From Terriglobia bacterium (GTDB lineage Bacteria > Acidobacteriota > UBA6911), in assembly GCA_963739235.1 (NCBI GenBank), contig CAVTZY010000024.1, positions 282,123 to 346,122 of the forward strand: a stretch of 64,000 nt of DNA. Direction: 5' to 3'. Position numbers and translations under genes: made by a program. Shown piece by piece: positions 4,589 to 63,521 of this stretch. Each line of letters opens with the position of its first letter. Positions within the stretch are counted from its first letter, which is position 1. Under the pieces are notes generated by a model. It worked only from the letters and a program-made list of their open reading frames with translations, was not told the origin of the DNA and searched no databases.

Positions 4589-4603
4589 ACAAGGAAAGGA
4601 GAG

Positions 4604-23891: not shown

Positions 23892-24515
23892 ATGAAAAGC
23901 AGAAAGACCAGAACCTTGTTGAGCTTTGTGATCGGCATCGTCACAGTCCTGGCTTTCATTGACGGCCGGGTTTCTGCGCATTGCGACGGCATGGACGGTC
24001 CAGTGGTCAAAGCTGCGCAAAAGGCGTTGGCGGCCGGAAATGTCAACCTGGCTCTTATCTGGGTCCAGCAGAAGGACGAGGGGGAGGTGCGTAAGGCTTT
24101 CCAGAAGGCACTCGCAGTACGGCGTTTGAATCCGGAGGCCAGGGAGATGGCAGACATGTATTTCTTCGAGACCCTCGTGAGGCTTCATCGCGCAGGGGAA
24201 GGCGAGCCTTACACGGGGATCAAGCCCGCAGGGCGGGATCTCGGACCCGCAATACCGGCGGCGGATAAAGCAATCGAACAGAAGTCAGCGCAGCAGTTGC
24301 GAACCCTCCTGACAGGCACAATCCAGGATGGGCTGCAGGACCGATTCAAGAACGTGCTCGCCAAAAGCAGCTATTCCAGGGACGACGTGGCCGCCGGGCG
24401 TGAATTTGTGAAAGCGTACGTAGAGTTTATTCATTACGCCGAGCAGGTTTATCAGACCGGGAAAGGCAATCCATCTGACGCCCACCCGGGTGAAGGTCAC
24501 GCGGTATCCAAGTAG
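23892..24515 (+). CDS. Hypothetical secreted protein (signal peptide) within NO-stress cluster
   Basis: 207 aa; N-terminal LLSFVIGIVTVLAFIDGRVSA signal-like; no family recognised. Confidence 0.4.
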   Translation: MKSRKTRTLLSFVIGIVTVLAFIDGRVSAHCDGMDGPVVKAAQKALAAGNVNLALIWVQQKDEGEVRKAFQKALAVRRLNPEAREMADMYFFETLVRLHRAGEGEPYTGIKPAGRDLGPAIPAADKAIEQKSAQQLRTLLTGTIQDGLQDRFKNVLAKSSYSRDDVAAGREFVKAYVEFIHYAEQVYQTGKGNPSDAHPGEGHAVSK

Positions 24516-24698
24516 CGCATCACGCGAAGAAACTCGGGACGTCATGCAACTGCAGCACACTTGGTCGATTGGAAGAGGCAAACGGCGGGAATCTCGGCCG
24601 ACATCGAGTGCGTTGAAACCCAGGCCCATTCGGCAGCAAGAGTCTGGATCCGGGAAACCTGCATCGGGACACCGTATAGGAATTGAAGGGGGCATATC

Positions 24699-45055: not shown

Positions 45056-45065
45056 GGAATTTCTG

Positions 45066-45324
45066 GCGCTTAGATAAGGATTTCAATTGGGACCCTGAAA
45101 GGGTCCAGCAGCAAAGCCCAGGGCGCAAGCCCTGGGAACTGACGTTTGGCAAGGAATCAGCCCTGAAAGGGCGGTGCAGGCTGCGCCGCCCTTTCAGGGC
45201 TGGTTTCCCGGATGAACATGATCCCAGGGCTCACGCCCTGGGCTTTGCTGCCCCGCCCCTTCAGGGCTTAATCACTTGATTTGGCGGGACTAACAGGTGA
45301 TTGGGGCATTCTTAACTAAGCGCC
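45066..45324. repeat. MITE-like ~259-bp element (left copy) with 14-bp terminal inverted repeats (ggcgcttagataag / cttaactaagcgcc) and internal cluster of perfect hairpins (cccagggcgcaagccctggg; cagccctgaaagggcgg...ccgccctttcagggctg)
   Basis: Reverse complement occurs at 57413..57672; ends are mutual inverted repeats; followed at 45330..45405 by a 24-bp-stem perfect hairpin gacaggcgccataacctcgaaatt/aatttcgaggttatggcgcctgtc. Confidence 0.75.
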
Positions 45325-45407
45325 ATTCGAGACAGGCGCCATAACCTCGAAATTTCATGGGAAACAGGTTCCTCGAATCGCCAGTAATTTCGAGGTTATG
45401 GCGCCTG

Positions 45408-46703: not shown

Positions 46704-46739
46704 ACTCTCTTCCTTGCGGACGCGATGCTCCGGACTCGC

Positions 46740-48068
46740 TCAGTCCCTCATAAAATGAGGCATTTCAGGGGAAAGCTCGACAATCTGAGGTGCGGGTGGC
46801 CCGCCCTCGCCTCGAAGTCGGGCCGAGTTTCTTGACTCTATGGGCTGCTTCGAAAGTGGTGCCAGAGCAGATTTCCACAGGAGCCTGGCTATGCGGATCG
46901 GGAAGTACAGAAAAGACAATTGCGTGGGGAGTTCGAGGCAGATCCAATCGTGATATCGAGGCAAAAATATCATCCTGGTAAGTATTCGAATGCGGTCCGG
47001 CCATCGATCTGCCAGCCTGGCTTGATAAAAACAGCGCTCCATGGCAGTAAGCGGCGGAAGATCCGGGGCGAACAGACGGCTTTGGGCTAACGCTGCCAGG
47101 TCAAGTAGAGGCGCGTCCTCCCTGATTCGTCCCCGAACCTCTTCGGGAATTTCCACTCCGCAGAGATCATGCGCCATGACCAGGCCGAGCAGAAGCACCC
47201 GCTCGCTCCCGGAATCGCGGGCCTGTTTGAAAAGCCACTCCCAGTTCATATGTGGATTGGCGCGGACAAGTTCAGCCACGCCGCAAATCCATTCAAGTTT
47301 CTCCCACAAGTGCCTGCCGCCGTGAGCGCAGAGGATCAGAAGCAAGTCCATGTTTGAGAGATTGCGGACTCTTTTGCCTGCGAGATCGGCCCATTCAACC
47401 CGATTCCAGACACCCTGCATATCGATGGCGCATGGGAAAAAGATCGGGGCCACCTTCCAGTGAAGCTCAACACATGTTGAGTTGCCCTCGTGTCGATAGG
47501 GAATCTCGTATTGCGTCCACAGGAATGATGCCGATCGCGCCTGCGGAATCTCCTGGGTTGCCTTGTATCCTTGATCGCGCAACAAGGCCTCTGCCTGGGC
47601 GACTTTGTTTTCCGGGACCAGAATGTCGAGATCCTCGAATTGCCGGAACGCCAGGTTGCCGTATATCGACCTCGCCAGGACCGGACCTTTGAACGGGAGT
47701 GCCGGGATTCCGTGATTTTCAAAGAGTGTCAGGATCTTGATCAGTTCAGCGGTCAGCAGGAGATTCCTGGCGCTATTGTTCACAAAGCACTCGCGGAGCT
47801 CCTGTAGGACGGCGCGCGGCACCAGATCAGGACTGATAGAATGCAGGTGCCAATAGAGAAGGGGCATCAGACCGTGCCTGCGGCTTGCGGCAATGAGGCT
47901 GGGCCAATCGATCTCCGTTGCGAGCAGGCTCCTGATCCGCTCGGCGGTTTCCGCATTCATGCTTATCCGGGCCGAGCACCGAAGCAGCTCATCTTCGCGA
48001 CGCAGAGGCCCCTCAGCCTGGTTCGACCTCGTTGGGATGAATCGCTGCATCCTTGTATGGAGTTTCAT
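46740..48068 (-). CDS. Uncharacterised nucleotidyltransferase-family protein (PF14907-like) of the kind found in HPr-kinase-associated lasso peptide clusters
   Basis: Start ATG 48068 overlaps ABC stop (ATGA coupling); LLRCSARISMNAETAERIRSLLATEIDWPSLIAASRRHGLMPLLY...IPALPFKGPVLARSIYGNLAFRQFEDLDILV matches this family pattern (LL.CAR...IDW..L...A..HGV.PLLY...GI..IPLKGP.LA..LYG....R.F.DLDLLV). Confidence 0.6.
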   Translation of the reverse strand: MKLHTRMQRFIPTRSNQAEGPLRREDELLRCSARISMNAETAERIRSLLATEIDWPSLIAASRRHGLMPLLYWHLHSISPDLVPRAVLQELRECFVNNSARNLLLTAELIKILTLFENHGIPALPFKGPVLARSIYGNLAFRQFEDLDILVPENKVAQAEALLRDQGYKATQEIPQARSASFLWTQYEIPYRHEGNSTCVELHWKVAPIFFPCAIDMQGVWNRVEWADLAGKRVRNLSNMDLLLILCAHGGRHLWEKLEWICGVAELVRANPHMNWEWLFKQARDSGSERVLLLGLVMAHDLCGVEIPEEVRGRIREDAPLLDLAALAQSRLFAPDLPPLTAMERCFYQARLADRWPDRIRILTRMIFLPRYHDWICLELPTQLSFLYFPIRIARLLWKSALAPLSKQPIESRNSARLRGEGGPPAPQIVELSPEMPHFMRD

Positions 48069-49897
48069 ACCGGCGTTTCTATCTGCTTTGTCCAGGATTC
48101 CGCGTACCTGCCATCCCTTGAAAGCAGCTGGTTGTGAGTCCCCGATTCTACGATCCGGCCGTCCGCCATTACGTGAATGATGTCGGCACCCATGGCCGTG
48201 GTCAAACGGTGAGTGATGATGACGGTAGTGTGGCCCTCCACAAGCCGGCGAAACTGCGCCAGCCAGACAGCCTCTGCCCAGGGATCCATTGCGCTGGTGG
48301 GCTCGTCGAGTAGAAGGATGGGAGCGCGGCGCAGCAAAGCCCGGGCCAGCCCGATTTTCTGCCATTCGCCCGCGCTCAGTTCAGCTCCACTCTCGAACCA
48401 ACGGCCCAGCATGTTGTCGTAACCCTTCGGCAGGGCGGCGATGAATTCTTTCGCCCCAGCCGCGCATGCGGCAGCTTCGACGTCCTCGCTTTGGGGATCT
48501 GCCTTCAGATCGCCAAGCGCGATGTTCTCGCGCACCGTGACGTTGTAGTGAATCGGCACCTGATACAGCACGCTGATTCGGTGACGGAGTTCCTCGAGGC
48601 TGAAAGCGCGAAGATCGGTGCCGTCGAAACTTACTCGACCTTCACCCGGGTCGTAGAGGCGGCAAAGCAGTTTGATCAGCGTGCTCTTGCCTGCGCCGTT
48701 CGGACCCACGATCGCTGCAATCTGTCCGGCCGGGATCAGCAGGTTGAAATTGTCGAGAGCCTTCCGCTCGGTGCCGGGATAGCGGAAGGTCACATGCTCG
48801 AAGCAAACGCCGTATCGCAAAGCGGTCGGCGCCGGCAGGGGATGCGGTGGATCCACCAATTTGGGTTCCAGATCCAAAAAAGCAAACAGGTTGCCGAGGA
48901 ACAGAATGTCGGCGTAGATTTGACCCGTGTTTTGCAGCAATGAGCGCAACAGGAGTTGCCCGTGATTAAAGGCCTGATAAAAAAGCGCCAAGTCTCCAAG
49001 GGTGACCAGCCCCTGCAGAGCCCGCCACGCCAGCCACGCCAGCGCGCATCCGGTGATACCGAGAGCCATGCAGCCAGCCGCCAACTCGGCAAGAGTCTGA
49101 TTCTTCTTTAGATCCAGATGTTCATTGCGCAGCCGTTGCCGCAGAGACTGATAGGCCGATTGAAAATAACGGCCGATTCCGAAGAGACGCACTTCGGCTG
49201 CGTTCTCCCCAGTCGTGAGCAACCAGTCGTAATACCAGGTCCTGCGTTCGTCGGCAGTGGTTTGCAGGCGCCAATCGTGTTGACGCATGGTGTGGCGCAG
49301 GACCACAAAGAACGCCGGCAGACTGCTGGCCACCAGGGCGACAGGCAACCAGACGCCGAAGGAAAACAGAACTGCCGCCATCCCCACCAGCGTCACGCTG
49401 TTTTGAAACAGATTCCCGAGGTTCTCGAGCAGCGCAACGGGTCGATAGCCGGCCTCCGCCCGGGCACGGTGCAGGCGATCGAAAAATTCGGGGGTCTCGT
49501 AGAAAGCCAGGTCTGCAGCTATGGATTTGTCGTGGATCAGATTCGTGATGTGATCCTGCACCAGCTCGGACTGGGTTGAGCGTATCCACTTGGTAACGCT
49601 GCTCAAGACCTCCGTGAGGAGCACGATCCCCGCCAGCAGAATGACGATGATCAGTGCAGGCTTTGCGTTCTGCCAGGTGCCGCCCGTGCCTATGGCAGCT
49701 ACCAGGTAATTGACTACAAACCGCGTGAGGTAGGCCGTTGCCACGGGAAGCAGGCCCTGCAGAATGAGCAGAAAGATCCACGCCGCGGTATAGCCCTTGG
49801 ACGCGGCCTGTACCAGAGCTAATGCCCTGTATAGGCAGGGCAACTGGGCGCCCACTCCGTTCAGTCCGGATCTAACTCTGTGCAGGTATGTGAACAT
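48065..49897 (-). CDS. ABC exporter, fused permease + ATP-binding domains (lasso/RiPP-exporter type)
   Basis: 610 aa; 6 TM N-domain; Walker A GPNGAGKST, signature LSAGEWQKIGLARAL, Walker B ILLLDEPTSAMD, H-loop ITHRL. Confidence 0.85.
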   Translation of the reverse strand: MFTYLHRVRSGLNGVGAQLPCLYRALALVQAASKGYTAAWIFLLILQGLLPVATAYLTRFVVNYLVAAIGTGGTWQNAKPALIIVILLAGIVLLTEVLSSVTKWIRSTQSELVQDHITNLIHDKSIAADLAFYETPEFFDRLHRARAEAGYRPVALLENLGNLFQNSVTLVGMAAVLFSFGVWLPVALVASSLPAFFVVLRHTMRQHDWRLQTTADERRTWYYDWLLTTGENAAEVRLFGIGRYFQSAYQSLRQRLRNEHLDLKKNQTLAELAAGCMALGITGCALAWLAWRALQGLVTLGDLALFYQAFNHGQLLLRSLLQNTGQIYADILFLGNLFAFLDLEPKLVDPPHPLPAPTALRYGVCFEHVTFRYPGTERKALDNFNLLIPAGQIAAIVGPNGAGKSTLIKLLCRLYDPGEGRVSFDGTDLRAFSLEELRHRISVLYQVPIHYNVTVRENIALGDLKADPQSEDVEAAACAAGAKEFIAALPKGYDNMLGRWFESGAELSAGEWQKIGLARALLRRAPILLLDEPTSAMDPWAEAVWLAQFRRLVEGHTTVIITHRLTTAMGADIIHVMADGRIVESGTHNQLLSRDGRYAESWTKQIETPV

Positions 49898-50364
49898 GAC
49901 GTGATTGCATTCCGACGCATGATATTGAGCCTCTTAAAAGCGGCAAAGCGCTCGTGAACGTCATCCTGATCGTTCAGGACAACGCCGGCGTATTCAACCC
50001 ACGCGTGAGCGTCCAGTCCGGCCCCATCCTTGCGGACGCCAAACCATACATCTCCACGTATTCCTCGTTCTTGCATCAGCCACCAGAGAACGAGAGATTT
50101 CTGAAGACAGCGTGTACGAAAGAGACCTCGCTGGGATGCGATCTTGACCATCCGTGCGGCGGCACGGGCCTCTGCCAGATCGTGCCCCAGCGGACCTGGA
50201 ATCCTGCCTTCAAACCAGGATGCCAAACGGATCAGGATCGATTGACACCAACGAAAGCCCGCCAGGCGAAGACTGCAGCCCATCAGGGGCAGCATCCAAA
50301 GCGCAGAGAAAAGCATGCGGCGCTCACTGGCTGACAGCTGACGGAACTTGCCAATGCTATTCAC
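49861..50364 (-). CDS. Lasso-peptide-type B2 leader peptidase (transglutaminase-like Cys protease, PF13471-like)
   Basis: 167 aa; RTRCLQKSLVLWWLMQERGIRGDVWFGVRKDGAGLDAHAWVEYAGVVLND contains the Cys...His(AHAWVE)...Asp arrangement typical of McjB-like B2 proteins. Confidence 0.65.
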   Translation of the reverse strand: MNSIGKFRQLSASERRMLFSALWMLPLMGCSLRLAGFRWCQSILIRLASWFEGRIPGPLGHDLAEARAAARMVKIASQRGLFRTRCLQKSLVLWWLMQERGIRGDVWFGVRKDGAGLDAHAWVEYAGVVLNDQDDVHERFAAFKRLNIMRRNAITSCSHTCTELDPD

Positions 50365-50659
50365 GATGAACCTCGACCAATTGGTGTTCCAGCAGCGTTG
50401 TGATCAAATTCATGAAATCCGTTTGCAGCCGCGTTCCGTCAACATCGTATTCATTCAGCAGTTGCTCGTAGGCATCCCGGATAGAATCGGCGGCAGCCAA
50501 AACCAACCACATTCTGGTCCCGATCTCGTCCAGGCTGCAGCAGAATGGATTCCTGACACTGAGGATGACCGATTCGCCGCCAACCTCATTTATCAATGTG
50601 CCCGGTGCCACAGCCACCTTGCTCGTCATCGGGATGGCCATCAGATCTTCATCCTGCAC
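50357..50659 (-). CDS. PqqD-family RiPP recognition element (lasso B1-type)
   Basis: 100 aa; VAPGTLINEVGGESVILSVRNPFCCSLDEIGTRMWLVLAAADSIRDAYEQLLNEY typical PqqD pattern; overlaps B2 by 8 nt. Confidence 0.65.
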   Translation of the reverse strand: MQDEDLMAIPMTSKVAVAPGTLINEVGGESVILSVRNPFCCSLDEIGTRMWLVLAAADSIRDAYEQLLNEYDVDGTRLQTDFMNLITTLLEHQLVEVHRE

Positions 50660-51089: not shown

Positions 51090-51292
51090 CGGACGTCTCG
51101 GCTGACTTCGCGCGAGGATTGGATGGAGGCGCAGAACACGGCGCCATAGCAAGAAAATAGAACGGAATAGTACAAACCGTAGGTCGAGAGCAGGCGGGAA
51201 GCCTCCAACGGGAGTGTGCCGCATTCGGATTCCATCACGATTGATTTCGGCACACTCTCTTCCTTGCGGACGCGATGCTCCGGACTCGCCAT
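51090..51292 (-). pseudogene. Internally deleted remnant of a VanZ-like gene (first ~42 codons fused in-frame to last ~12 codons) plus duplicated upstream region
   Basis: 68-aa ORF ...PKSIVMESECGTLPLEASRLLSTYG... and ...FCASIQSSR matches N- and C-termini of 45408..46703; 51150..51290 is ~95% identical to 46600..46740. Confidence 0.55.
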
Positions 51293-51416
51293 GTCCGTTA
51301 ATCGCGCTCGGGAGTTCTTTTGTCCAATTATCGTTTGTCATTTCACTATTTCATATCACTACGGTCCGGTTAATGGAATTTATTACACATAAATTGTGCT
51401 ATACTGTTAATGTGCA

Positions 51417-51659
51417 ATGGAGGATCTCATGAACAAGAATGTCACATTGCGGCTGGATGAAGCTGTCTTGCGCAAGGCCAGACATGCGGCAGTCGAGCAG
51501 GACCAGTCCTTGTCGGAATGGGTGGCCGATTTGGTCATTCGCACCACATCCGAAACGGATCGCAAGCAGAGTGCCCGGACCAGCGCGCTGCATCGGATAC
51601 GCAAAGGCTTGCATCTGGGCGGCACACCACTTTCGAGGGAGGAAGCCCATGGGCGTTGA
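51417..51659 (+). CDS. Putative antitoxin (RHH/CopG-like) of second VapBC-like pair
   Basis: 80 aa; NVTLRLDEAVLRKARHAAVEQDQSLSEWVADLV typical RHH-type antitoxin; overlaps PIN gene start. Confidence 0.5.
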   Translation: MEDLMNKNVTLRLDEAVLRKARHAAVEQDQSLSEWVADLVIRTTSETDRKQSARTSALHRIRKGLHLGGTPLSREEAHGR

Positions 51660-52071
51660 TCAGATCTTTGTCGACACCAACATACTCGTCTACGCACACG
51701 ATATCGATGCAGGCGAGAAATACCGGATCGCCAGGGACAAGATATCCGCCCTATGGCATCGTGATCTGCTGCCGAGCATCAGCGTCCTGGTACTGCAGGA
51801 ATTCTATGTAAATCTCATCAGGAAGAAAGTTGCCACGCCGCTTGCCCGGGAGACCGTGACCAACTACCTCGAGTGGGATGTGATCGACAATGACCGTTTC
51901 CTCTTCATCGAAGGGCTCCGATGGAAAGAGAAGTGCAACCTGGCCTACTGGGATGCTTTGATACTTGCCGCGGCAAGAAAAGCCAAGGCAAAGGAGGTTT
52001 GGAGCGAAGATTTGGCCTCTGGCCAGAATTACGATGGAATCATGGTGGTAAACCCGTTGATTCAGCAATGA
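51649..52071 (+). CDS. PIN-domain toxin (VapC-like)
   Basis: Start chosen at MGVDQIFVDTNILVYAHD (ATG 51649) within ORF-track 51439..52071; conserved PIN D residues (VDTNIL, ...YWDALILAAA). Confidence 0.65.
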   Translation: MGVDQIFVDTNILVYAHDIDAGEKYRIARDKISALWHRDLLPSISVLVLQEFYVNLIRKKVATPLARETVTNYLEWDVIDNDRFLFIEGLRWKEKCNLAYWDALILAAARKAKAKEVWSEDLASGQNYDGIMVVNPLIQQ

Positions 52072-52949
52072 CGCTTGTATTTTGGAGAGGCGGCCACAAT
52101 GAATCTAGCCCGGGCCGGCAAGAGCGTCACGTGAACGTCCGAAGGCAGGGGGGACGGCAAGCTTCTCGTGCAAATGCCTCGCTGCCCAATGCGATGCATG
52201 CTGTTTATATCCCGCTTTGAACCAGGCGCCCTTCTGCAATTGCTTCCGCAACGCGACTCCGGTGCGCGTCTGCCAAGGCCTCCCTAACACGCGCGCCCAG
52301 AACTTCAATTTATCTAACTGCCATCCGTGACAGGCACTTACATAAGGTGAAACTCTTCTCTCGCCCTTCCAGGGCTCTCGTGCATACTCATAAACCCCGG
52401 GCGGCGCTGCGCTTGCCCGGGGCTACTATCTCGCGCGCCTCCGGCGCGGGTTCCGCCCGCAGATTACAGGATTCCCCTGCACACCCGTCTCGGCGTGCGT
52501 TATCCATGCAGTGTGCCCACCTGCCATTGTGCACATACCCCGGAGGTTACGCAATCGTGCCTGCTCAGCGCGTCAAAATTGCGCAACCTGTGATTGTGCA
52601 ATATGTCGCTCCCCCCAACATGTTGTGATACGCGCCTTATCACACAATCGAAGGGGCAATAAGATAGTAGCCGGGTGTAAGCGCAGTGCCGCCCCCGGTT
52701 AACCAATGACGCATAATGAGCCCCGGCGGGGCGAAGGAAAACCACGTTATCCTCCATGTAAAGGTTGAGCCAGCCCTCAGGAGCCCTTATCAGAGTGCCA
52801 TTCGTGCCTTTTGCCAGTTTCGCTTCGATCCAAAGGCATAAGGGTTCAATGATCGGCAGTCGATGAGATATTCCAGGCGAGTGCAGCCGCAAGCTGTATT
52901 TGTGTATGGCAAAGGCAAATGCCTGCTGGGGTAGTCAAAGAGGTTCTGG

Positions 52950-55900: not shown

Positions 55901-57392
55901 GGCCGATGGCGAAGAACAGCGCGTCACGGCCGGAGGGGGACGGGAAGTGACGATCGGCGGATTTACCAGCACCTCCATCCGCGTCGTGGATGTCTCCGAT
56001 CCCGCAAACGTCAGCGAAATCAACGGGCGGACCCTTGGCGCCGGGTCTGGCTATGAGGTCGCTTTCAGCACCCCTGACAAAAGCGGGGCTCTGCAACTGC
56101 TGGCTTTCGGCGATGAGGCGGTGCAGATGCCTGCGGCCATTCTCCCCCATGCCCCATCGCACTGGAGTGAACACACGTCCGGCGCTGATGTGATTCTGGT
56201 CACGCATGAATCCTTCCAGGAGGCTGCCGCATCTCTTGCTTCCCAGCACAAGGCTGCCGGACTCCAGGCGGCAATCGTCAATGTGGCAGACCTTTATGAC
56301 GAGTTTTCGTTCGGCCTCAAGAACCCGTCCGCGATCCGGGACTTTGTCCTGCGGGCGCTGGCCACATGGAGCAGAGTCCCACGCTGGCTCGTTCTGCTCG
56401 GTGACGCATCCTTCGACCCGAGGGACTATCTCGGTTTAGGAGCAGGCGACTTCGTCCCCACCAAGCTGATTGACACCCAGTACCTCGAGACGGCCTCGGA
56501 CGACTGGTTCGCCGATGCCAACAACGACGGGATCCCGGAGCTTGCGATTGGGCGCCTTCCGGTGCGGACTCCGGCGGAAGCCAATGCCCTGGTTGCCAAG
56601 CTCGCCGCCTATAGGAAGCAGGCCCGCTCGGATGACTGGGCGAAGCGCGTCGCGCTCGTGGCCGATGCCAACGACACCTGGGATTTTGAAGCCGCCAGCG
56701 AAGCCATCAAAGCGGACCTGGGGGCCGACTGGACTTACGCCTCCTTCTATCGCGGCCAGCTCGGCACCTCCGCAGCTCGCCCGGCTTTGCTCGCCGCACT
56801 CGAGGCCGGGAACGCCGTCGTCAACTACTTCGGGCACGGTTCGGTGGAACTCTGGCATGACAACCTGCTCACCTCCGAAGATGCACGGAACCTGGGCAAC
56901 GGCGTGAAACTGCCGCTGTTTCTGATGATGACCTGCCTGAACGGCTTCTTCGTGGATGTTTACAGCGAGTCGCTGGGCGAAGCTCTGCTCAAAGATCCCG
57001 ATGGCGGTGCCGTGGCCGTCTGGGCATCGAGCGGGCTGGCCGAGCCTGACGGGCAGCTGCCGGCGAATCGCGAGGTGTACAGCGAGCTGAAGCGACCCGG
57101 CGCCACTCTCGGCCAAGCCGTCGCCCGAGCCAAGGCTGCCACGAGCGACGCCGACGTACGGCGCACCTGGGTTCTGCTCGGGGATCCGACCCTGGGGTCT
57201 CCGGTGGCTGGGCCCGCTCAGGTGGTTGGCGATATCAACGGCGATGGGGTGGTGAATGTACTGGATCTCCAGCTCTTGGTCAACATCATCCACGGGGTGA
57301 GCCCCTGCACCGGCAACTGCGACCTCAACGGCGATGGCAGCGTGAATCTGCTGGATCTGCAGATTCTTGTCAACATCATCCTCGGAGTCTGA
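52950..57392 (+). CDS. Giant secreted protein: signal peptide, Gly/Thr/Ser-rich beta-helix-like repeat region, peptidase family C25 (gingipain-like) catalytic domain, C-terminal tandem dockerin-like repeats
   Basis: 1480 aa; VVNYFGHGSVELW and PLFLMMTCLNGFF match C25 His/Cys catalytic motifs; C-terminus GDINGDGVVNVLDLQLLVNIIHG ... CDLNGDGSVNLLDLQILVNIILG are two dockerin-type Ca-binding repeats. Confidence 0.7.
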   Translation: MTPGEENCRRHSAIITGGLLLLCLWTCFLGVARAADTGFKTTGTIVSSGSWTNFTTVYINSSNDQRAYVSSSSSYGVCSTYGFSIPADARIDGIEVQVEGREPFTFGTVNFGIQVSWNNGSSWVTEKTSSFNSSTDATSTFGGSSDTWGRSWTDTEFSDANFQLRVRKISGILNFEIDFLQVRVYYTNAKTWDRGAGTNNWGDANNWNPDGVPLATENVSLTGADTIDVNVAGVCNSITLNNAGLALTVKSGNSLTASFNFKLTSGTLNTEAAFPTVTGTTTISAGTVGYNGSGAQAVLALNYYNLTLSNAGTKTIATATTVAGDMTTSGTVTASCSGSLTVSGNVVIGSGTTFNGGSGTVDFNGTLTITSATFTATSGSLSVAGNLTISGSTFAHNSGTVVFDGTDATLTSGGAAFNNFTVNAANKQVYLSASGSLTVNGTLSIQTGYLIQDPANNLSAGSISIGASGRLRNYGTGSLTLAGPVSNSGTIDFDGGGDASCTGTNRILIRSSVNGTQRAWSSSGGTFQMVDVDIQDQAGTAAITCYGSQSSGNNGANWTINTDCAGAPTAVTLVSFGAQQADTAVKLQWQTGYEVQNLGFHIYRESGGVIERVSPSLIAGSALFAGARTALGTGRSYEWWDRDGGGHSGAQYWLEDIGLDGNRTRHGPVTPAPGGREMSDAGQSPLLKDIGRAQLHSGKPKSTDSETQPQRTTASDAPEPLPTMAPETPEPPPTIADQMRVQIWIAGQYAVKLLVKRDGWYRATQAQLIAAGLNPDLDPRKLQLYAAGVEQAIVVSGEEDGHFDSGDSVEFFGLGIDTPWTDQRAYWLIEGPVPGKRVRQVSPAGGADAGASFRYDVELKPRTIHFGALLNGDAENFFGNVVDPSGDEEILRVHHLDNTAPADARLEITLQGATKEPHQVRIDLNGAQIGVLSFEQQMQGTQRFALLAGLLRDGDNTVHLVALGSDTDISLVASIRLSYWHTFTADGEEQRVTAGGGREVTIGGFTSTSIRVVDVSDPANVSEINGRTLGAGSGYEVAFSTPDKSGALQLLAFGDEAVQMPAAILPHAPSHWSEHTSGADVILVTHESFQEAAASLASQHKAAGLQAAIVNVADLYDEFSFGLKNPSAIRDFVLRALATWSRVPRWLVLLGDASFDPRDYLGLGAGDFVPTKLIDTQYLETASDDWFADANNDGIPELAIGRLPVRTPAEANALVAKLAAYRKQARSDDWAKRVALVADANDTWDFEAASEAIKADLGADWTYASFYRGQLGTSAARPALLAALEAGNAVVNYFGHGSVELWHDNLLTSEDARNLGNGVKLPLFLMMTCLNGFFVDVYSESLGEALLKDPDGGAVAVWASSGLAEPDGQLPANREVYSELKRPGATLGQAVARAKAATSDADVRRTWVLLGDPTLGSPVAGPAQVVGDINGDGVVNVLDLQLLVNIIHGVSPCTGNCDLNGDGSVNLLDLQILVNIILGV

Positions 57393-57412
57393 TTTCGGGG
57401 ACAGGCGCGAAT

Positions 57413-57672
57413 GGCGCTTAGTTAAGAATGCCACAATCACCTGTTAGTCCCGCCAAATCAAGTGATTAAGCCCTGAAGGGGCGGAGCAGCAAAGCCCAGG
57501 GCGTGAGCCCTGGGATCATGGTCATCCGGGAAACCAGCCCTGAAAGGGCGACGCAGCCTGCGCCGCCCTTTCAGGGCTGATTCCTTGCCAAACGTCAGTT
57601 CCCAGGGCTTGCGCCCTGGGCTTTGCTGCTGGACCCTTTCAGGGTCCCAATTGAAATCCTTATCTAAGCGCC
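57413..57672. repeat. MITE-like ~259-bp element (right copy), inverted relative to 45066..45324
   Basis: Reverse complement of the left copy with few mismatches; additionally flanked by short inverted repeats atttcggggacaggcgc / gcgcctgtccccgaaat. Confidence 0.75.
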
Positions 57673-57717
57673 TGTCCCCGAAATAGCACAGGCGAGGATC
57701 TATCCACGTTTACAATA

Positions 57718-58641
57718 TCAGCCTGCGTGCTGTCTCAGGGATTCAACCACGCGATAGTCGGGAACGACACTGAGTTCATAGCAGGGAATGTTCTTGATCA
57801 GCTCTTCATAAAAACCGAGAGTGAACTCAAGCCCGCCCCGGTCATAGAAGGTGGGAAAGGTGCACGAAAAGAGGTGAGCGGCGGCCTCGGCACCGGTCTT
57901 TCTCACGATTGCGTTTTCAGAGCCGTGACGCAAAAGGAAAACTTTCTTCAGCAATGCGCGCTGAGGCTGGGCAAACTCAGCTTCCCCGTGCCAAGGTGTG
58001 CCATACATCCAATAGTGCCCATCTGTCCGACGCAGAATGATGCGGTCGTCGCTGAGAATCGTCACTCCTCGTTCTCGTTCCCAAAGCCTGGCCATGGTCG
58101 TTTTGCCGGCGCCGGACTGACCTGCAAAAACATATCCGTTTCCCGAAATATCCACGAGCCCACACGCGTGGATTTCAACGCCGCTTCCCCTGGATAGAAT
58201 GTGCAGCATCATGAGTTCATCCAAAGGATACTGGAGCGGATATACGGCCTGACCCGGGTCAAAGTGGGGGCGGTGAAGATATACTTCGCCGAAATTGAAA
58301 TCCCGATTGAAGCGTGCAATTGCGTATGGAACCGGGCCAAGAGTGGCGGCAAAACATTGATAAAGGTAGCATCCATCCTCGGCAAACAGTTTCCATGAAC
58401 CACCGGAATCGAAAATCCTGTCCCAGCCGCATTCGGCCGTGAGATTCTGCCAGGAGGCTTCAAGATTCACGTCGGCTTTTAACCTGGGCACCCTGAACCG
58501 ACTCATCTCCGCACCGGGATGGATCTTCATGTCAGGAGCGACGGAGGTAATAGAAATACTGATATCGGCAATTGCGAGGCAAACCTCGCCGAAGGATGGT
58601 TTGGGTTCTGCGGCTCCTGGAAAGGATGTGCTCAAGATCAT
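57718..58641 (-). CDS. HPr kinase-related (HprK C-terminal-domain-like) kinase, RiPP-associated type
   Basis: 307 aa; P-loop GQSGAGKTT followed by ILSDD; this kinase family accompanies PqqD-type RRE proteins in lasso peptide clusters, where it phosphorylates the precursor C-terminal Ser. Confidence 0.7.
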   Translation of the reverse strand: MILSTSFPGAAEPKPSFGEVCLAIADISISITSVAPDMKIHPGAEMSRFRVPRLKADVNLEASWQNLTAECGWDRIFDSGGSWKLFAEDGCYLYQCFAATLGPVPYAIARFNRDFNFGEVYLHRPHFDPGQAVYPLQYPLDELMMLHILSRGSGVEIHACGLVDISGNGYVFAGQSGAGKTTMARLWERERGVTILSDDRIILRRTDGHYWMYGTPWHGEAEFAQPQRALLKKVFLLRHGSENAIVRKTGAEAAAHLFSCTFPTFYDRGGLEFTLGFYEELIKNIPCYELSVVPDYRVVESLRQHAG

Positions 58642-58700
58642 GGCAGCTCAGTCAGCTGAAAACCGGAGTGCGTTCTGATGTCGGGAGGCAGGAGCCCTGC

Positions 58701-58883
58701 TCAGGATGCGAGGCTATTGCAGGGCACCGGCGCATTACATTTTGCCTGCGCCGGACCGGTGAATCCGGCATTCTTGCATGCTCCTAAGACGGCTTCTTCG
58801 GGTTTCAGCAGCACCTGCTTCAGCTGCGGTTTTTCATAAGGTTTTTTCTTGGGTTCGAGCCCTTTCTCCGGTTTGTCATTCAT
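58701..58883 (-). CDS. Candidate RiPP precursor peptide (60 aa): Lys/Pro-rich leader containing YEKPQL (YxxPxL) and a core with three Cys and a C-terminal Ser
   Basis: MNDKPEKGLEPKKKPYEKPQLKQVLLKPEEAVLGACKNAGFTGPAQAKCNAPVPCNSLAS; AGGAAAG RBS 5 nt upstream of ATG; located between the rSAM/SPASM gene and the HprK-like kinase on the same strand. Confidence 0.45.
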   Translation of the reverse strand: MNDKPEKGLEPKKKPYEKPQLKQVLLKPEEAVLGACKNAGFTGPAQAKCNAPVPCNSLAS

Positions 58884-58991
58884 ACGCTTTCCTCGCTCAC
58901 AAGTTTCCGGCCTCTTGGGCCGCGCGTGCCGATCAAAATCCAGGGCCGACGCCGAGATCGGCCTGGAAGCCCCACACTCTCACGTGTGCCG

Positions 58992-60299
58992 TCAGCACGA
59001 TGGAGCGCCGGCAGCGAATCCGCAGCCACATGCGGAGTCATCTGCTTTCAATGCTCCCGGCGATCCATCAAATGGGGGCCCGGAACCCGGTTCTATCTTT
59101 GTTCCGCCATCCCCAATGCCCCGCACCCGATCTATAAGTTTGTCATATCCTTGCCTGCTCATGCAATGCTCGCATCCTCCGTGCCCGGGCACAGGAATAC
59201 CAAGGACGTGGGACCGGAGATGCGCGACCTGGCACAGAAAATCCACGGGGGATTCCGGATCTCCCCGCTCCAACTCGCCATTGGCAGGACACATTCCGCA
59301 CATCGCCTTGATCTCACACGACAGGCACTTGGTGGCTCTGGTTATTTTACGTCCCCGTACTTTCCCTAGAAACTCTTGCCAAGCCGTGCGAAAGCTTCCT
59401 GTGCGCAGATCGTAGGTGTCCGTGTGCGAGAGCACACAGATGCTCATTCTCCCCTGCGGGTCGATGGCGAAGGAATTAATCCCCCCGCCGCAGTGATACA
59501 TCTCGCTGCCATCCCCCGATGAATGCACCGGCCCATTGAACTGCCTGGTAAAGCTCGCCCACGCCGCGACCCGTTTGGGATCCAGCAGATCGAGCTCAAT
59601 AACCTCAGCAGGCGTAAGCCTCACCGCCAAAGGGCTCTGCGTGTTATCAATTCTTGGGTTGATCATGCAATCAAACGTGAACTCCAGTCCGAGTTCTTGC
59701 TCAGCGAACTGCTTCATATCCCAGATTTCGTGCTTGTTCAAGGTGATGGCTGTGGTCTTGAGATACAGCGGCAATCTGCGATCCCGGAGCAACCGGATTC
59801 CTCGCATGCACTTCTCAAAGGAACCCGGGATTCCGGTGATACGCTCGTAAGTCTCTCGGGTGCGGCCATACAGAGTAATTCCTATGGAAAATGGAATCCA
59901 CTGAGCGAGGTGGTCTGCCACATCCGGGGTGACCAGGGTGCCATTAGTAAAGAGGGTGATCAGCAGCCCCTTTTTCTTGGCATAGGTGTAAATGTCGAGG
60001 AAATCTCTCCGGGCAAAAATCTCCCCGCCCGTGTAAAGCAGCCAAAGGCAGCCGCTGTCGGTGATCTCGTCCAGCACGCGACAATGATCGTCGTAACTCA
60101 GCTCACCGAGTCGGGCCTCACGGTCCTCCATGGCCAGATTGTTGTAGCAATGGCAGCATGCCATCGGGCAGCGCCGAGTCACCTCGATCGTGCCACTCAG
60201 CGGGATTCTGTGCTTGAAAGATCGCCGCTGCAGGCCCGCACTGAATTCGCCATAGCTTAGCATTTCCCCGTCATCCTCCGTTTTCGGGCAAGCTGCCAT
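58992..60299 (-). CDS. Radical SAM peptide-modifying enzyme with SPASM domain and additional Cys-rich C-terminal tail
   Basis: 435 aa; CPMACCHCY (Cx3Cx2C); SPASM-type C-terminal cysteines KCLSCEIKAMCGMCP; extra C-terminal GGCEHC...CGCG. Confidence 0.85.
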   Translation of the reverse strand: MAACPKTEDDGEMLSYGEFSAGLQRRSFKHRIPLSGTIEVTRRCPMACCHCYNNLAMEDREARLGELSYDDHCRVLDEITDSGCLWLLYTGGEIFARRDFLDIYTYAKKKGLLITLFTNGTLVTPDVADHLAQWIPFSIGITLYGRTRETYERITGIPGSFEKCMRGIRLLRDRRLPLYLKTTAITLNKHEIWDMKQFAEQELGLEFTFDCMINPRIDNTQSPLAVRLTPAEVIELDLLDPKRVAAWASFTRQFNGPVHSSGDGSEMYHCGGGINSFAIDPQGRMSICVLSHTDTYDLRTGSFRTAWQEFLGKVRGRKITRATKCLSCEIKAMCGMCPANGELERGDPESPVDFLCQVAHLRSHVLGIPVPGHGGCEHCMSRQGYDKLIDRVRGIGDGGTKIEPGSGPPFDGSPGALKADDSACGCGFAAGAPSC

Positions 60300-60594
60300 G
60301 GAGACCGGAGGCTCGCAGGTTGTTCATGAAATCAACAATATCTTGGGTGGCTTCTTCTGTTGAAACCTCATATTCCCGGCAGACAGCAGCTGCGATCTCA
60401 GGAACGGGTTTTCCCGCGCGCATCATTTGCCAAATGTCCGCACCCGGCGCGTTCAAGGTGTAGATCGAATTCAAATCGCCCACACCACCCCTCACGGGCA
60501 CGATGATCGTTTCGCCGCCGATCTGTCGAGTTACGAAATCCTCTTTTGCTTCCATGTCTTTCATGGGAATACTCGTGTCCTTATCTTTCGGCAT
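60271..60594 (-). CDS. PqqD-family RiPP recognition element (second copy; partner of the radical SAM enzyme)
   Basis: ORF track 60271..60741; start chosen at MPKDKDTSI (ATG 60594); FVTRQIGGETIIVPVRGGVGDLNSIYTLNAPGADIWQMMRAGKPVPEIAAAVCREYEV is a typical PqqD fold sequence. Confidence 0.6.
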   Translation of the reverse strand: MPKDKDTSIPMKDMEAKEDFVTRQIGGETIIVPVRGGVGDLNSIYTLNAPGADIWQMMRAGKPVPEIAAAVCREYEVSTEEATQDIVDFMNNLRASGLHGSLPENGG

Positions 60595-61141
60595 GCTGCA
60601 GGCACCCGTTAGTAATTCGTCGAGGCGCGCAAGTGACCGCGCCAACGTCAGGCGCAGGTTTTTGGCCCGCCGCACCAGTAACTGCCGGAAAAAACTGCGT
60701 ATCCGACGGCTGGGGGCCCTGACGCAACTCATCTTTGCCAAAAAATCAGTTTAACATCTTATCTACGAAATGAATCACATCAGAACTCTTGGCCCGGCCA
60801 TTTCCCTGCGGCGTCCAGGATTTGTTGCACGCTGACACGTTGCTGTCGGCACCCCGAGTCATCGCAGAATTAGGATCCGTGAAATCGCCTGACGCTCCTG
60901 GTGGACGGGCGTGCCGCCCGCGCTACAAAAGTGAATCATGAAGTCGCATTCCAAGCCGCCGGCAGCGCGAAAAAGAGTCTAAACTCCCTAGGCAGTTCGC
61001 CGATGTAGATCATTGAGTGAATGAACGGCACTTATGTGCCTGCCCGTTTCCGCACCGGTTTGTGGAAAGCGTCACTTCCCTGAGGAGGGTGGCGGTTAAT
61101 GCGAAATTTCCAATGGCACAGATTAGCAAATTGAGCCTCAT

Positions 61142-61552
61142 ATGGAATCCCCCCCGGACAAATTGATCCGATGGAGTGAGGTTAGCTTTGTGGAGCCATA
61201 TTCTTGCCCGGCGCCTGGTTCCATATCTCAGGCATCGGGCCGTGAAAACGATCCGCAAATCAGCCTCATTGATTACTGGGCAATTCTGATCAAACGCCGC
61301 TGGATCCTTCTGACTGCTCTATTCACCGTATTAATGCTGACTGCCATCAACACCTGGAAACAAACGCCGATCTATCGGGCGAATCTGAAACTGCAGATCG
61401 ACATCGAGCAGACCAACATCCTGCCTTTCAAGGACTACGCATCGCCCGACTTCACCTACACCCCGACCGAAGAGTACCTGAAAACCCAGTTTGAAGCTTT
61501 GTCCAGCCGCACCCTGGCCACTCGGGTGATCCGCGTGCTGAAGCTCGAGTAA
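61142..61552 (+). pseudogene. N-terminal Wzz/chain-length-determinant segment of a Wzc/EpsB-like protein, separated from the rest by a stop/frameshift
   Basis: 136 aa with TM helix WILLTALFTVLMLTAINTW and Wzz-like NLKLQIDIEQ...; continues in a different frame at 61587. Confidence 0.5.
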
Positions 61553-61586
61553 CGATCCTCGGTTCGTAGGAGCCGACCAACCGGAT

Positions 61587-63521
61587 ATGATCGGCCATGT
61601 GATGCAGGCAGCGCGCGGGGCCTACCGCGTCTTGCGCCCGGCCAATAGTTTGCCTGCGATGGCGCCGAAAAGCGAAGAAAAGGATCAACTCATCTCACCT
61701 CTGGCTGCCGCTTTTGTTTCCAGCTTAGCCGTCACACCGATAAAAGATAGCCGTGTCGTGGTCGTGAGTTTTGATTCCCGGGATCCCACACTTGCCGCCC
61801 AGATCCTGAACACGCTGGCTGCCGAATACATTCAGATGAATTTTGAAACCAAGTATAAGGCCACAGTTACGGCATCTGAATTTCTCGAGAAACAGCTGGT
61901 CGATCTGCGGGCCCAGGTGCAAAAGTCTGAGGCACAATTAGTGAAATTCGGCCGGGCGCACAACATCTATGCCCTGGGCTCCAAAGAAAACATAATCATG
62001 CAAAAGCTCGCCGATCTTGATTCCGCGCTGACCAACGCACAGGCCGAGCGCATAGCAAAGGAGTCCGTTTGGAAAACCCTGGCCCAGGCAAGCCCTGGAG
62101 AGTTTCCGGATAGTTTGCGCAACGATGACATCAGAAAGCTGGAAGCAAACATCGGTCAACTTCAGCAGCAGCAGGCCCGGCTCAGGGCATTATTCAAAGC
62201 GGAATGGCCGGAATTGAAGCAGATCGCCAATCAGCTCGGCGTTGCGGAGCAACAACTCGCAGACGCCAAGGAAACTGCGATCAAAGAAGTAGCCGCGGCA
62301 TACGGCGCCGCCGAGGAAAAAGAAAAACTTCTCGAACATGCCGTCGCGGCGCAAAAGGTCGAGGCAGACACACTCAATAAGGACTTTATCCAATATAGCA
62401 TCCTCAAACGGGAAGTCGACAGCAGCAAGCAGGTCTTCGACGGCATGCTTCAACGGATGAAGGAGGCCGGCATCTCGGCGGGCTTGAAATCCAACAACAT
62501 CCATGTCGTCGACCCGGCGGAGCCTCCCCAGTCCGCCTATCTGCCTGACATTACCATGAATATGCTCAAGGCGTTGGCCGGGGGATTACTGCTCGGGATT
62601 GCTCTAGCCTTCCTCCAGGAACATATCTTTTCTCATTTGGACCGGAGCCTCAAGACCCCGGAGGACATCGATCGATACATCAAGTTGCCATTCCTGGGCT
62701 TGATACCGTCGGTTCAAACCCCCTCTCCTGTGCTGAGTCTGAAGCTCTCGAGGAAGAATGCGCAAATCCTCATGCCTGCCGACGGTCACAATGGTTCCAC
62801 TGGCTCAGCAGACAAGTCGATCGTGGAACTGATCGCACATTACGACTCGCAATCGCTGATATCGGAAGCCTATCGCGACCTCCGCACGTCGATTCTGCTA
62901 TCTGCGAGCACAGCTCGAAGCCCCAAAGCACTGCTGGTTACATCCAGCCTCAAGGGCGAAGGCAAGACTACCACCAGCATCAATCTGGCCATCACCCTGG
63001 CGCAAGCCAATGAAAAAGTCCTGTTAGTGGACTGCGACATGCGCAATCCCAGCATTCACAAAGTCTTCGGCCTGGAAAACGAAAATGGACTGAGCAGCTT
63101 CCTCTCCGGCACCTCGACAACTGACATGCCCTTGACTCAAACTACCCAGGTTCCCAACCTCTTCCTATTCCCTGCCGGGCAGATGCCGCCGAATCCGTCC
63201 GAACTGCTCGGGTCGGCAGGCATGAGGAAGTGCATTCTGGAGTTGTCGGAGCAATTTGACCATATCCTGATCGACTCGCCGCCTTTGCTTGCCGTAACCG
63301 ATGCGAGAATCCTGGCGACCATGGTGGATGGCGTGGTTCTTGTGATCAAAGGGGGTGAGACGACAAAGGAAGCGGTCATTCGTTCCCGGCGCTTATTGCA
63401 GGATGTACACGCACCTATTCTCGGAACCATGTTGAACAACGTGGATTTCCGTTCGTCCGATTCCTATTACTATGCCAAGAACTATTACCCTGTGGGTGAC
63501 TACTATGTCCGGCAATCATGA
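61587..63521 (+). CDS. Polysaccharide co-polymerase / tyrosine autokinase (Wzc/EpsB-like)
   Basis: 644 aa; periplasmic coiled-coil region, second TM, C-terminal BY-kinase Walker A SSLKGEGKTTTSINLA and Walker B-like VLLVDCDMR, ILIDSPPLLAVTDA. Confidence 0.75.
   Translation: MIGHVMQAARGAYRVLRPANSLPAMAPKSEEKDQLISPLAAAFVSSLAVTPIKDSRVVVVSFDSRDPTLAAQILNTLAAEYIQMNFETKYKATVTASEFLEKQLVDLRAQVQKSEAQLVKFGRAHNIYALGSKENIIMQKLADLDSALTNAQAERIAKESVWKTLAQASPGEFPDSLRNDDIRKLEANIGQLQQQQARLRALFKAEWPELKQIANQLGVAEQQLADAKETAIKEVAAAYGAAEEKEKLLEHAVAAQKVEADTLNKDFIQYSILKREVDSSKQVFDGMLQRMKEAGISAGLKSNNIHVVDPAEPPQSAYLPDITMNMLKALAGGLLLGIALAFLQEHIFSHLDRSLKTPEDIDRYIKLPFLGLIPSVQTPSPVLSLKLSRKNAQILMPADGHNGSTGSADKSIVELIAHYDSQSLISEAYRDLRTSILLSASTARSPKALLVTSSLKGEGKTTTSINLAITLAQANEKVLLVDCDMRNPSIHKVFGLENENGLSSFLSGTSTTDMPLTQTTQVPNLFLFPAGQMPPNPSELLGSAGMRKCILELSEQFDHILIDSPPLLAVTDARILATMVDGVVLVIKGGETTKEAVIRSRRLLQDVHAPILGTMLNNVDFRSSDSYYYAKNYYPVGDYYVRQS

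Follow-up and report, generated by a model that had tools for sequence, protein, structure and literature searches.

Homologues of HPr kinase phosphorylate the C-terminal Ser of linear lasso peptide precursors, and the Ser phosphate thus formed receives hexoses from an NTP_transf-type enzyme (PMC8498205). The B1 protein of lasso clusters recognises a YxxPxL motif, which is located at positions -17 to -12 of lasso precursors, and stimulates the HPr-kinase-homologue kinase (PMC10368454). Here we describe a locus in a 64,000-nucleotide (nt) stretch of a Terriglobia bacterium genome (contig CAVTZY010000024.1; this whole stretch is called the window), in which a similar set of genes is grouped around a peptide of 60 amino acids (aa). 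The locus shares several components with the phosphorylated and phosphoglycosylated lasso systems (paeninodin, PadeK; pseudomycoidin, PsmK/PsmN; BsfK/BsfB1/BsfN), namely an HPr-kinase-like enzyme, a precursor that ends in Ser, a PqqD/B1-type recognition element together with YxxPxL, an NTP_transf_5-type enzyme and an ATP-binding cassette (ABC) exporter; the window itself also has the leader peptidase B2. Unlike these systems, however, it shows no Asn-synthase-like cyclase among its scanned open reading frames and has no conserved Asp or Glu for a macrolactam. Cyclase and ring residue are replaced by a radical S-adenosylmethionine (rSAM)/SPASM enzyme and three conserved Cys, and the lasso core rule, with Gly, Ala, Ser or Cys at position 1 and Asp or Glu at positions 7-9, does not hold for the 60-aa peptide family.

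The closest catalogued system is SynChlorMet. Its cassette is defined by comparative genomics only and contains two rSAM/SPASM paralogues, ScmE and ScmF; we know of no identified precursor and of no experimental work on it. As in our locus, a PqqD-family protein, an rSAM/SPASM enzyme and an HprK-like P-loop protein are co-encoded, and models exist for ScmD (TIGR04248), ScmC (TIGR04249 and Pfam PF27840), ScmE (TIGR04250) and ScmF (TIGR04251). However, the window scores far below the cut-offs for ScmC (20.1 versus 125 bits), ScmE (79.8 versus 400) and ScmF (56.3 versus 400), its PqqD protein has no ScmD match, and its cassette has one rSAM gene, whereas SynChlorMet has two. The family represented in the window also differs in having a clear conserved precursor as well as a signal peptidase, a C25 peptidase and a nucleotidyltransferase. 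The original prediction, which was made from the letters of the window, did not recognise this gene combination from any described class. In line with this, full-text literature searches returned no paper describing a combination of PqqD, rSAM/SPASM and HprK-like proteins, and only the lasso-kinase papers were relevant; the pairing as such, however, is already catalogued in the NCBIfam SynChlorMet models and PF27840.

Sactipeptide and ranthipeptide systems (AlbA, SkfB, StsB, PapB, CteB) likewise bring an rSAM/SPASM enzyme and a PqqD-type recognition element to bear on a Cys-containing ribosomal peptide. In contrast, the recognition element in the window is a separate protein, and a kinase, a nucleotidyltransferase and a C25 peptidase are added, joined in relatives by the signal peptidase. 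Our literature search found no paper with a kinase, nucleotidyltransferase, signal peptidase or C25 peptidase in sacti- or ranthipeptide clusters. The general features of peptide systems with an rSAM/SPASM enzyme and a recognition element for ribosomally synthesised peptides with post-translational modifications (RiPPs; RiPP recognition element, RRE) are all present, including CX3CX2C, the seven SPASM Cys, and a PqqD RRE with a small precursor that bears a conserved leader. Generic genome-mining rules would presumably label the locus 'ranthipeptide' or 'RRE-containing'. The locus would best be described as a peptide system of the rSAM/SPASM-RRE kind in which tailoring, processing and export are of the lasso type.

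We consider it probable, at roughly 0.6, that the window holds one copy of a widespread and conserved RiPP-like peptide-maturation system, which occurs mainly in Acidobacteriota and the chemistry of which we infer throughout. In the model that we propose, PqqD would bind the 60-aa precursor via its leader (PYxKPx[L/V]...L[R/K]PEEAVLGxCK), through YxxPx(L/V). The rSAM/SPASM enzyme would modify the C-terminal part of ~23 residues, most plausibly by forming thioether crosslinks from the conserved Cys, and the HprK-fold protein of the ScmC family would phosphorylate the C-terminal Ser or Thr. NTP_transf_5 may attach one or more sugars to the terminal phosphate, as it is the case for the lasso peptide pseudomycoidin. 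The leader would be cut at or near the EEAVLGxCK junction, in most genomes probably by a signal peptidase of the endoplasmic reticulum (ER) type and in the window probably by a lasso-type B1/B2 pair, which shares its operon with the ABC transporter, the nucleotidyltransferase and a VanZ-like protein. The ABC transporter would export the product, and a secreted C25 peptidase would act on the outside of the cell, where it may trim after the invariant Lys of CK or serve as a transpeptidase. The product is likely a Cys-crosslinked peptide with a phosphorylated, perhaps glycosylated, C-terminal Ser. In evolutionary terms, the recognition, tailoring and export module of phosphorylated lasso systems would have been joined to an rSAM/SPASM enzyme that replaces the cyclase.

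A more far-reaching proposal is that the system constitutes a new RiPP class of soil Acidobacteriota, in which the lasso toolkit of B1 RRE and YxxPxL leader, Ser kinase, nucleotidyltransferase, ABC exporter and, at times, B2 has been recoupled to an rSAM/SPASM enzyme that stands in for the cyclase, a thioether peptide with a phospho(glyco)sylated C-terminal Ser is processed by secreted signal peptidase and C25 peptidase, and the product has a role in the exopolysaccharide (EPS) or biofilm matrix and not that of an antibiotic. This is tentative, and we would sooner expect some part of it to fail than all of it to hold. In soil, the Acidobacteriota belong to the most abundant bacteria, yet very little is known of their peptide chemistry. 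If the reactions proposed above are true, an rSAM-crosslinked scaffold would join the lasso peptides as a carrier of C-terminal Ser phosphorylation and possibly glycosylation. The family is also a natural case of RiPP module exchange, with an rSAM enzyme in place of the cyclase and a leader peptidase that is of the ER type in most genomes and B1/B2 here, and it would link a ribosomal peptide to EPS loci and giant secreted C25 peptidases. The system is readily testable, as heterologous expression and mass spectrometry would require no more than four to six genes and a single 60-aa peptide.

The cassette and its precursor peptide

The four minus-strand open reading frames (ORFs) that were originally assigned to positions 57718-60594 are placed as described (Table 1), and the presence of a conserved precursor beside PqqD and rSAM/SPASM genes agrees with the view of a RiPP-like operon. 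The PqqD protein matches PF05402 with 57.6 bits (cut-off 23.4) and the rSAM protein matches PF04055 with 63.8 bits. The top NCBIfam matches of the PqqD protein are lasso PqqD chaperones, with 36.1 and 34.3 bits, both below cut-off.

For comparison, 80 loci were taken from species-representative genomes by a search with a profile of the kinase, and five were added from metagenome look-ups, giving a sample of 85. In 82 of these 85 loci, the genes are arranged as in the window, and the small ORF is in its place. The PqqD gene lies upstream of the rSAM gene in 71/85, and the rSAM gene is single in the window and in 79/85. This recurrence is far beyond chance. Relatives of the kinase are encoded in at least 590 species-level genomes according to the kinase profile search, and when 1.84 billion cluster representatives (50% identity) were searched with a profile, the kinase family numbered 1,553 proteins at the threshold of E ≤ 1e-30 and 7,369 at that of E ≤ 1e-10. 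Acidobacteriota lineages account for the labels of 58 of the 80 genome loci, while the remainder are labelled Nitrospirota, Methylomirabilis, Myxococcota, Desulfobacterota-like, Binatia and others. Single-linkage clustering of the neighbouring ORFs lumped kinase, signal peptidase and C25 peptidase together because of fusions and overlapping ORFs, and was set aside in favour of targeted searches.

The 60-aa ORF is a real gene, which encodes a translated and conserved precursor. A GAGG lies 7 nt upstream of its ATG, the ORF is present in the NCBI, ENA and Logan gene calls, and 82/85 loci contain a homologue by phmmer with the window peptide, in every case located between the rSAM gene and the kinase gene. 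A word-indexed protein search with the same peptide gave seven matches; this search was too insensitive for short peptides and was replaced by the locus-based phmmer. Over the 22 codons from Tyr to Lys, the mean codon entropy across 76 loci amounts to 0.78, 0.58 and 1.48 bits at positions 1, 2 and 3, respectively. At the invariant residues (Y, P, C and K), entropy is zero at codon positions 1-2 and 0.66-1.77 bits at position 3. Such third-position variation indicates purifying selection on the translated peptide. It could still be argued that this is a chance ORF, or a non-substrate whose neighbouring enzymes act on another protein. The small size of the ORF and the lack of a family model match in NCBIfam and Pfam are all that speaks for this idea, which is effectively refuted by the conservation in 82/85 loci, the codon-position pattern and the independent gene calls. 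Conservation and translation of the small ORF, on which the original prediction had depended, are both supported.

On the leader side, the precursor consensus reads K/R-x-P-Y-x-x-P-x-[LV]-x-x-V-x-L-[RK]-P-E-E-A-V-L-G-x-C-K. Past CK follow 22-24 residues with the pattern x5-G-P-x3-4-C-x2-P-x1-2-C-x3-G-S(end). Y..P.[LVIMF] is found in 77/78 peptides, always exactly 18 residues ahead of the Gly of GxCK. Exactly two Cys lie beyond the CK motif in 72/76 peptides, the last one almost always five residues from the end, and 63 of the 76 CK-bearing peptides lack both Asp and Glu past this motif. The C-terminal residue is Ser in 74 and Thr in four of the 78 distinct peptides, and the penultimate residue is Gly in 62/78. 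It had been noted on the single window peptide that the terminal Ser fits a kinase and the Cys fit an rSAM enzyme; with a Ser or Thr end in 78/78 and conserved Cys across the family, this fit now extends to the relatives.

The kinase-like protein and the radical SAM enzyme

The kinase-like protein was initially described as HprK-related. Its predicted fold and motifs support this relationship, but its sequence scores only 20.5 bits on Pfam Hpr_kinase_C, and the matches to HprK_rel_B (27.7 bits), ScmC (20.1) and HPr(Ser) kinase (TIGR00679; 19.3 versus a cut-off of 240) are equally below cut-off. The last of these scores rules out a metabolic HprK, with which only the fold is shared, and this agrees with the original prediction. 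The AlphaFold model (mean predicted local distance difference test, pLDDT, 90.3) matches the fold of the ATP-dependent phosphoenolpyruvate (PEP) carboxykinase PEPCK (E 8e-8) and also the catalytic C-domain of HprK/P (E 1e-5, template-modelling score ~0.5 on the target). A PDB sequence search with the kinase profile was borderline (PEPCK 8e-4, HprK 0.07). In a 22-sequence alignment, H158, G174-x-S176-x-x-G179-K180-T181-T182 and S197-D198-D199-R200 are invariant; His, P-loop and Asp-Asp in this order form the HprK/P active site. Precomputed matches to PF27840 'ScmC' are marked 'weak' for the window kinase and unmarked for many of its homologues.

Some Bryobacteraceae loci contain a second set of kinase, PqqD and rSAM genes near the main cassette (L017 17803-20187, L024 635-2864, L034 7470-10118). 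Kinases of these second sets outscore the window kinase on the ScmC model, with 43.9 and 37.2 bits, and the window kinase is 31% identical over 188 aa, i.e. the whole C-domain, to the ScmC-like kinase of the second cassette in L017.

In two further loci, from Methylomirabilis and Acidobacteriota metagenome-assembled genomes (MAGs), peptide, kinase and signal-peptidase genes occur with no rSAM or PqqD gene within 10 kb (L011 9740-11371, L056 9708-11406). These loci may represent a reduced form of the system, with phosphorylation as the only modification. As peptide and kinase persist there together, the peptide-kinase pair is the tightest link of the system. The strongest single clue to the target of the kinase is the terminal hydroxyl residue, which is invariant with exchange of Ser to Thr.

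Alternatively, the ScmC-family protein may not be a peptide kinase. It could be an rSAM-accessory ATPase or phosphorylase, or act on an EPS sugar intermediate or on the C25 protein. Such a role would be consistent with sub-threshold scores on every curated kinase model, with top fold matches to PEP carboxykinases, which are small-molecule enzymes, and with the position of the cassette within EPS loci (glycosyltransferases, Wzc, Poly_export); moreover, ScmC has no assigned function beyond its NCBIfam name. A substrate other than the peptide is harder to reconcile with the hydroxyl amino acid that ends 78/78 peptides, including the Ser-to-Thr swaps, with the pairing of peptide and kinase where rSAM and PqqD are absent, and with the conserved HprK-type His, P-loop and Asp-Asp motifs. 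There is also direct precedent for HPr-kinase homologues that act on the C-terminal Ser of a peptide (PMC8498205). We judge this alternative to be unlikely, although no other rival strikes us as more probable.

For the rSAM gene, the start was originally set at 60299, but ATG 60263 (MLSYGEF...) is the likelier one. It is preceded by GGAGG, lies 7 nt past the PqqD stop, and is also called, with 423 aa, on an independent assembly of the same sequence. The CX3CX2C motif (C44/C48/C51) is kept in 70/71 homologues, and the seven Cys of the SPASM pattern (C270, C288, C325, C328, C334, C337, C356) are invariant in 71/71. They are spaced C270-x17-C288 (GxxxxC) and C325-x2-C328-x5-C334-x2-C337, where the final spacing is x2 instead of the usual x3. 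The earlier SPASM assignment is therefore upheld by the Cys pattern, but not by the Pfam SPASM model, which gave no match to the window enzyme at E ≤ 0.01. An extra CxxC (GHGGCEHC; ~59163-59174), with C376 present in 71/71 and C379 in 70/71 homologues, lies beyond the canonical seven SPASM Cys, where it may hold a further metal ion or cluster.

PDB matches of the radical-SAM core are PqqE and SkfB. On NCBIfam models, the window enzyme reaches 67 bits for AlbA (cut-off 850), 69.7 for StsB (625), 40.7 for PapB (340), 79.6 for the mycofactocin maturase MftC (265) and 73.9 for PqqE (381). The alignment to the MftC model extends over nearly its full length (residues 32-337). Together with the PqqE match, this raises the question whether the peptide is the precursor of a small cofactor or signal molecule, akin to pyrroloquinoline quinone (PQQ) or mycofactocin, that is excised from the conserved C-terminus by peptidases and receives a phospho- or nucleotide-linked head group built by the kinase and the nucleotidyltransferase. 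One copy per locus, occurrence in hundreds of species and a conserved C-terminal CxxxGS indeed look more like housekeeping than like an antibiotic. However, the scores for MftC and PqqE are far off their cut-offs, and an exported peptide is the better fit to three conserved Cys over ~20 residues, an ABC exporter and a secreted protease. On balance, a cofactor precursor appears rather improbable.

Peptidases and the lasso-type operon

The cassette is a larger unit than the four genes of the original prediction. It also comprises a C25 (gingipain/PorU-like) peptidase, usually an ER-type signal peptidase, and often NTP_transf_5 and an ABC exporter. A C25 homologue is present in 54/82 distinct loci, or 54/66 when only loci with 3 kb or more of sequence past the kinase are counted. 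In 46 loci, the C25 gene lies downstream on the same strand and often overlaps the kinase stop. Its orientation relative to the cassette is convergent in the window, as in the closest relatives (L087/L088, 59% kinase identity; a 67-kb JGI metagenome contig). GHG (H1296) and C1329 are invariant in 52/52 homologues, and the accessory domains include dockerin, DUF2341, and LTD or Laminin_G. The window protein resembles PorU and the gingipains in its C25 domain, its His-Cys dyad, its large multidomain build and its N-terminus, where a hydrophobic stretch looks like a signal peptide (read by eye from the sequence). On PorU sortase models it scores 239 and 203 bits, below cut-off (239 versus 420). 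In contrast to PorU and the gingipains, the C25 peptidase is here linked to a RiPP-like cassette and not to a type IX secretion system.

A signal-peptidase-like protein of ~150 aa follows the kinase in 72/82 loci. Its gene usually overlaps the kinase stop, and in some loci the protein forms the N-terminal part of a fusion with the C25 protein. It has GxSMxPTI...AHRV motifs, resembles SipW and passes the model for archaeal/ER-type signal peptidase I, TIGR02228 (59.6 versus 51.85 bits). No copy of this gene was found in the window by hmmsearch and tblastn.

A second minus-strand operon lies ~7 kb from the cassette, across the C25 gene and a PIN toxin-antitoxin pair (Table 1). The original prediction had limited the lasso link to the kinase, for which the precedent holds, but this operon of the window, with B1/B2, exporter and nucleotidyltransferase, provides a closer one. 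The ABC exporter has MsbA-, HlyB- and bacteriocin-exporter-like NCBIfam matches, all below cut-off. The probable start of NTP_transf_5, ATG 48068, overlaps the ABC stop as ATGA, and the protein is found with E 4.7e-114 by a profile built from cassette-adjacent homologues. NTP_transf_5 genes lie within 10 kb of the cassette in 33-39 of 82 loci, and ABC half-transporters of the window type lie near it in about 10-17 of 82. The VanZ-like protein may act in immunity or on the envelope; in locus L084, a VanZ gene heads a B1-ABC-NTP operon.

In loci L007 and L015, the gene immediately upstream of the ABC gene, with which it overlaps, is a signal-peptidase-like one. In the window, B2 sits in this same slot, which looks like a non-orthologous replacement of the leader peptidase. 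The 67-kb contig, which was reached via a 59%-identical B2, encodes PqqD, rSAM enzyme, 60-aa peptide and ScmC, followed by a convergent C25 gene, a 112-aa ORF, B2, ABC and NTP_transf_5. Glycosyltransferases, Wzc and Poly_export come after NTP_transf_5, and there is no cyclase on this contig. Based on the shared NTP_transf_5 and ABC genes, the equivalent position and this independent contig, we consider the lasso-type operon tied to the cassette.

Remoter B2 relatives (49% identity) are found in ordinary lasso clusters, alongside cyclase, methyltransferase and NTP_transf_5. In a Blastocatellia MAG, a genuine lasso cluster is located directly upstream of the cassette (L026 1363-7810). It contains B1, B2, a cyclase in three ORFs, a second HprK-like kinase, a methyltransferase and NTP_transf_5; the splitting of the cyclase possibly reflects long-read frameshifts. 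Since B2 relatives and L026 sit in true lasso clusters, the module is lasso-derived, and the adjacency in L026 shows how lasso and rSAM systems could swap parts.

The same data raise the possibility that the window contains a decayed or split lasso cluster, with the cyclase lost or elsewhere and the rSAM cassette as an unrelated neighbour. After all, B1, B2, ABC exporter and NTP_transf_5 of the window stand in lasso-like order, the closest B2 relatives include true lasso clusters, L026 has a real one directly upstream of its cassette, and the leader carries YxxPxL. However, no Asn-synthase-type cyclase was detected among the scanned ORFs of the window, nor does such an ORF recur among 65 large neighbour ORFs of the cassette loci, which bears out the original view that a lasso cyclase is not a regular neighbour. 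With 63/76 peptides free of Asp and Glu after CK, there is no conserved ring-forming residue. Furthermore, no plausible lasso precursor lies upstream of the window's B1, and the B2-ABC-NTP module is found beside the cassette, again with no cyclase, on the independent 67-kb contig. We therefore rejected this explanation, which we regard as very improbable.

Several points weigh against the reading that we prefer, a conserved RiPP-like maturation system with lasso-type tailoring. The spacing from YxxPxL to Gly is one residue longer than in lasso leaders (18 versus 17). The kinase-like protein reaches no curated model cut-off, its likeness to the lasso-adjacent kinase of L026 is confined to the P-loop region, and the lasso kinase BsfK phosphorylates Ser3, so the target is not always the terminal Ser (PMC10368454). 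The rSAM enzyme stays below all NCBIfam equivalog cut-offs, including those for sactipeptide and ranthipeptide enzymes, which makes the crosslink type a guess, and no conserved crosslink-acceptor residue is evident in the precursor family. Among the 66 loci whose flank beyond the kinase extends for 3 kb or more, 12 have no C25 gene within reach. Lastly, B1/B2 stand beside the cassette in a few loci only, namely in the window, on the 67-kb contig and, in part, in L084, while the B1/B2 of L026 belong to the neighbouring genuine lasso cluster. With so few cases, the assignment of B1/B2 to the 60-aa peptide rests on gene position.

Gene coordinates, repeats and flanking genes

The window and its closest relatives alike have Wzc, Poly_export and glycosyltransferase genes on the flanks of the cassette, and Wzc-type genes lie within 10 kb of it in 12/82 loci. 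This exopolysaccharide-locus setting suggests a role at the cell surface or in the matrix, rather than that of a classical antibiotic.

Table 1. Positions of the cassette, the lasso-type operon and associated features in the window.
Feature	Position	Strand	Basis and remarks
PqqD-family RRE	60271..60594	minus	PF05402; TTG/ATG start possible up to 60741 (ORF open)
Radical SAM/SPASM maturase	58992..60263	minus	PF04055; 423 aa from ATG 60263
GC-rich hairpin with T-rich tail, between rSAM stop and precursor start	58944..58963	minus	Terminator-like consensus match only
60-aa precursor peptide	58701..58883	minus	Conservation and ribosome-binding site; MNDKPEKGLEPKKKPYEKPQLKQVLLKPEEAVLGACK / NAGFTGPAQAKCNAPVPCNSLAS
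HprK/PEPCK-fold P-loop protein, putative peptide Ser/Thr kinase, Pfam 'ScmC' family	57718..58641	minus	307 aa
276-nt palindromic repeat, arm 1	57397..57672		Fills gap between convergent kinase and C25 genes; internal hairpins
C25 (gingipain/PorU-like) cysteine peptidase, 1480 aa	52950..57392	plus	Peptidase_C25 261 bits; C-terminal Dockerin_1 41.5 bits
Second PqqD-family protein, lasso B1-like	50357..50659	minus	PF05402 37.6 bits; lasso_PqqD_Bac 46.9 bits, cut-off 80
Lasso-type B2 leader peptidase (transglutaminase-like cysteine protease)	49861..50364	minus	Transglut_core3 66 bits; NF033537 68.9 bits, cut-off 33
ABC exporter, fused permease/ATPase half-transporter	48065..49897	minus	ABC_tran, ABC_membrane
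NTP_transf_5 nucleotidyltransferase	46740..48068	minus	PF14907 217 bits; ORF open to 48365
VanZ-like membrane protein, 431 aa	45408..46703	minus	VanZ 89.5 bits, two stretches
276-nt inverted repeat, arm 2	45065..45340		96% complementary to 57397-57672
Wzz/Wzc-type chain-length determinant and tyrosine autokinase, divergent	61142..63521	plus	Two ORFs in different frames

The hairpin at 58944-58963 occupies an odd place for a terminator-like structure within a RiPP operon; attenuation or RNA stabilisation may be its function. A consensus scan of 57300-61200 gave no sigma-70-like promoter, a result that is uninformative for this phylum.

The two 276-nt repeats resemble miniature inverted-repeat transposable elements or repetitive extragenic palindromic elements. 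They bracket a 12-kb segment with the VanZ, NTP, ABC, B2 and B1 genes, the PIN pair and the C25 gene, and a 13-mer fragment related to them is found at 52362-52374. The repeat pair could mediate inversion of the bracketed segment. We also considered such an inversion as the cause of the convergent C25 gene, but this is probably not the case, as the closest relatives are convergent with no evidence of the repeats.

Direct repeats connect 51106-51296 with 45422-45461 (93% over 40 nt) and with 46585-46746 (91% over 162 nt). They show that remnants of a VanZ-like gene, from its 3' and its 5' end, lie in the region upstream of B1. Taken with the intact VanZ gene upstream of B1 in L084, these remnants suggest that the window was probably rearranged recently. 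Between both operons lie the PIN-domain toxin (51439-52071) and an overlapping antitoxin-like ORF (51417-51659), a pair that is absent from the compact locus on the 67-kb contig.

The Wzc-type gene of the window is split into ORFs at 61142-61552 (136 aa) and 61587-63521 (644 aa), whereas its relatives are encoded by one ORF of ~740-810 aa. It is either a frameshifted pseudogene or the result of a sequencing error. Further away, the region 421-10327 encodes a DUF4365 protein, a phage-type integrase, RadC and a type I/Eco57I-like methylase, and is possibly a mobile or defence island. At 22353-26987, ScdA/hemerythrin genes lie beside a quinol-type nitric oxide reductase gene (NorB-like, 24699-26987).

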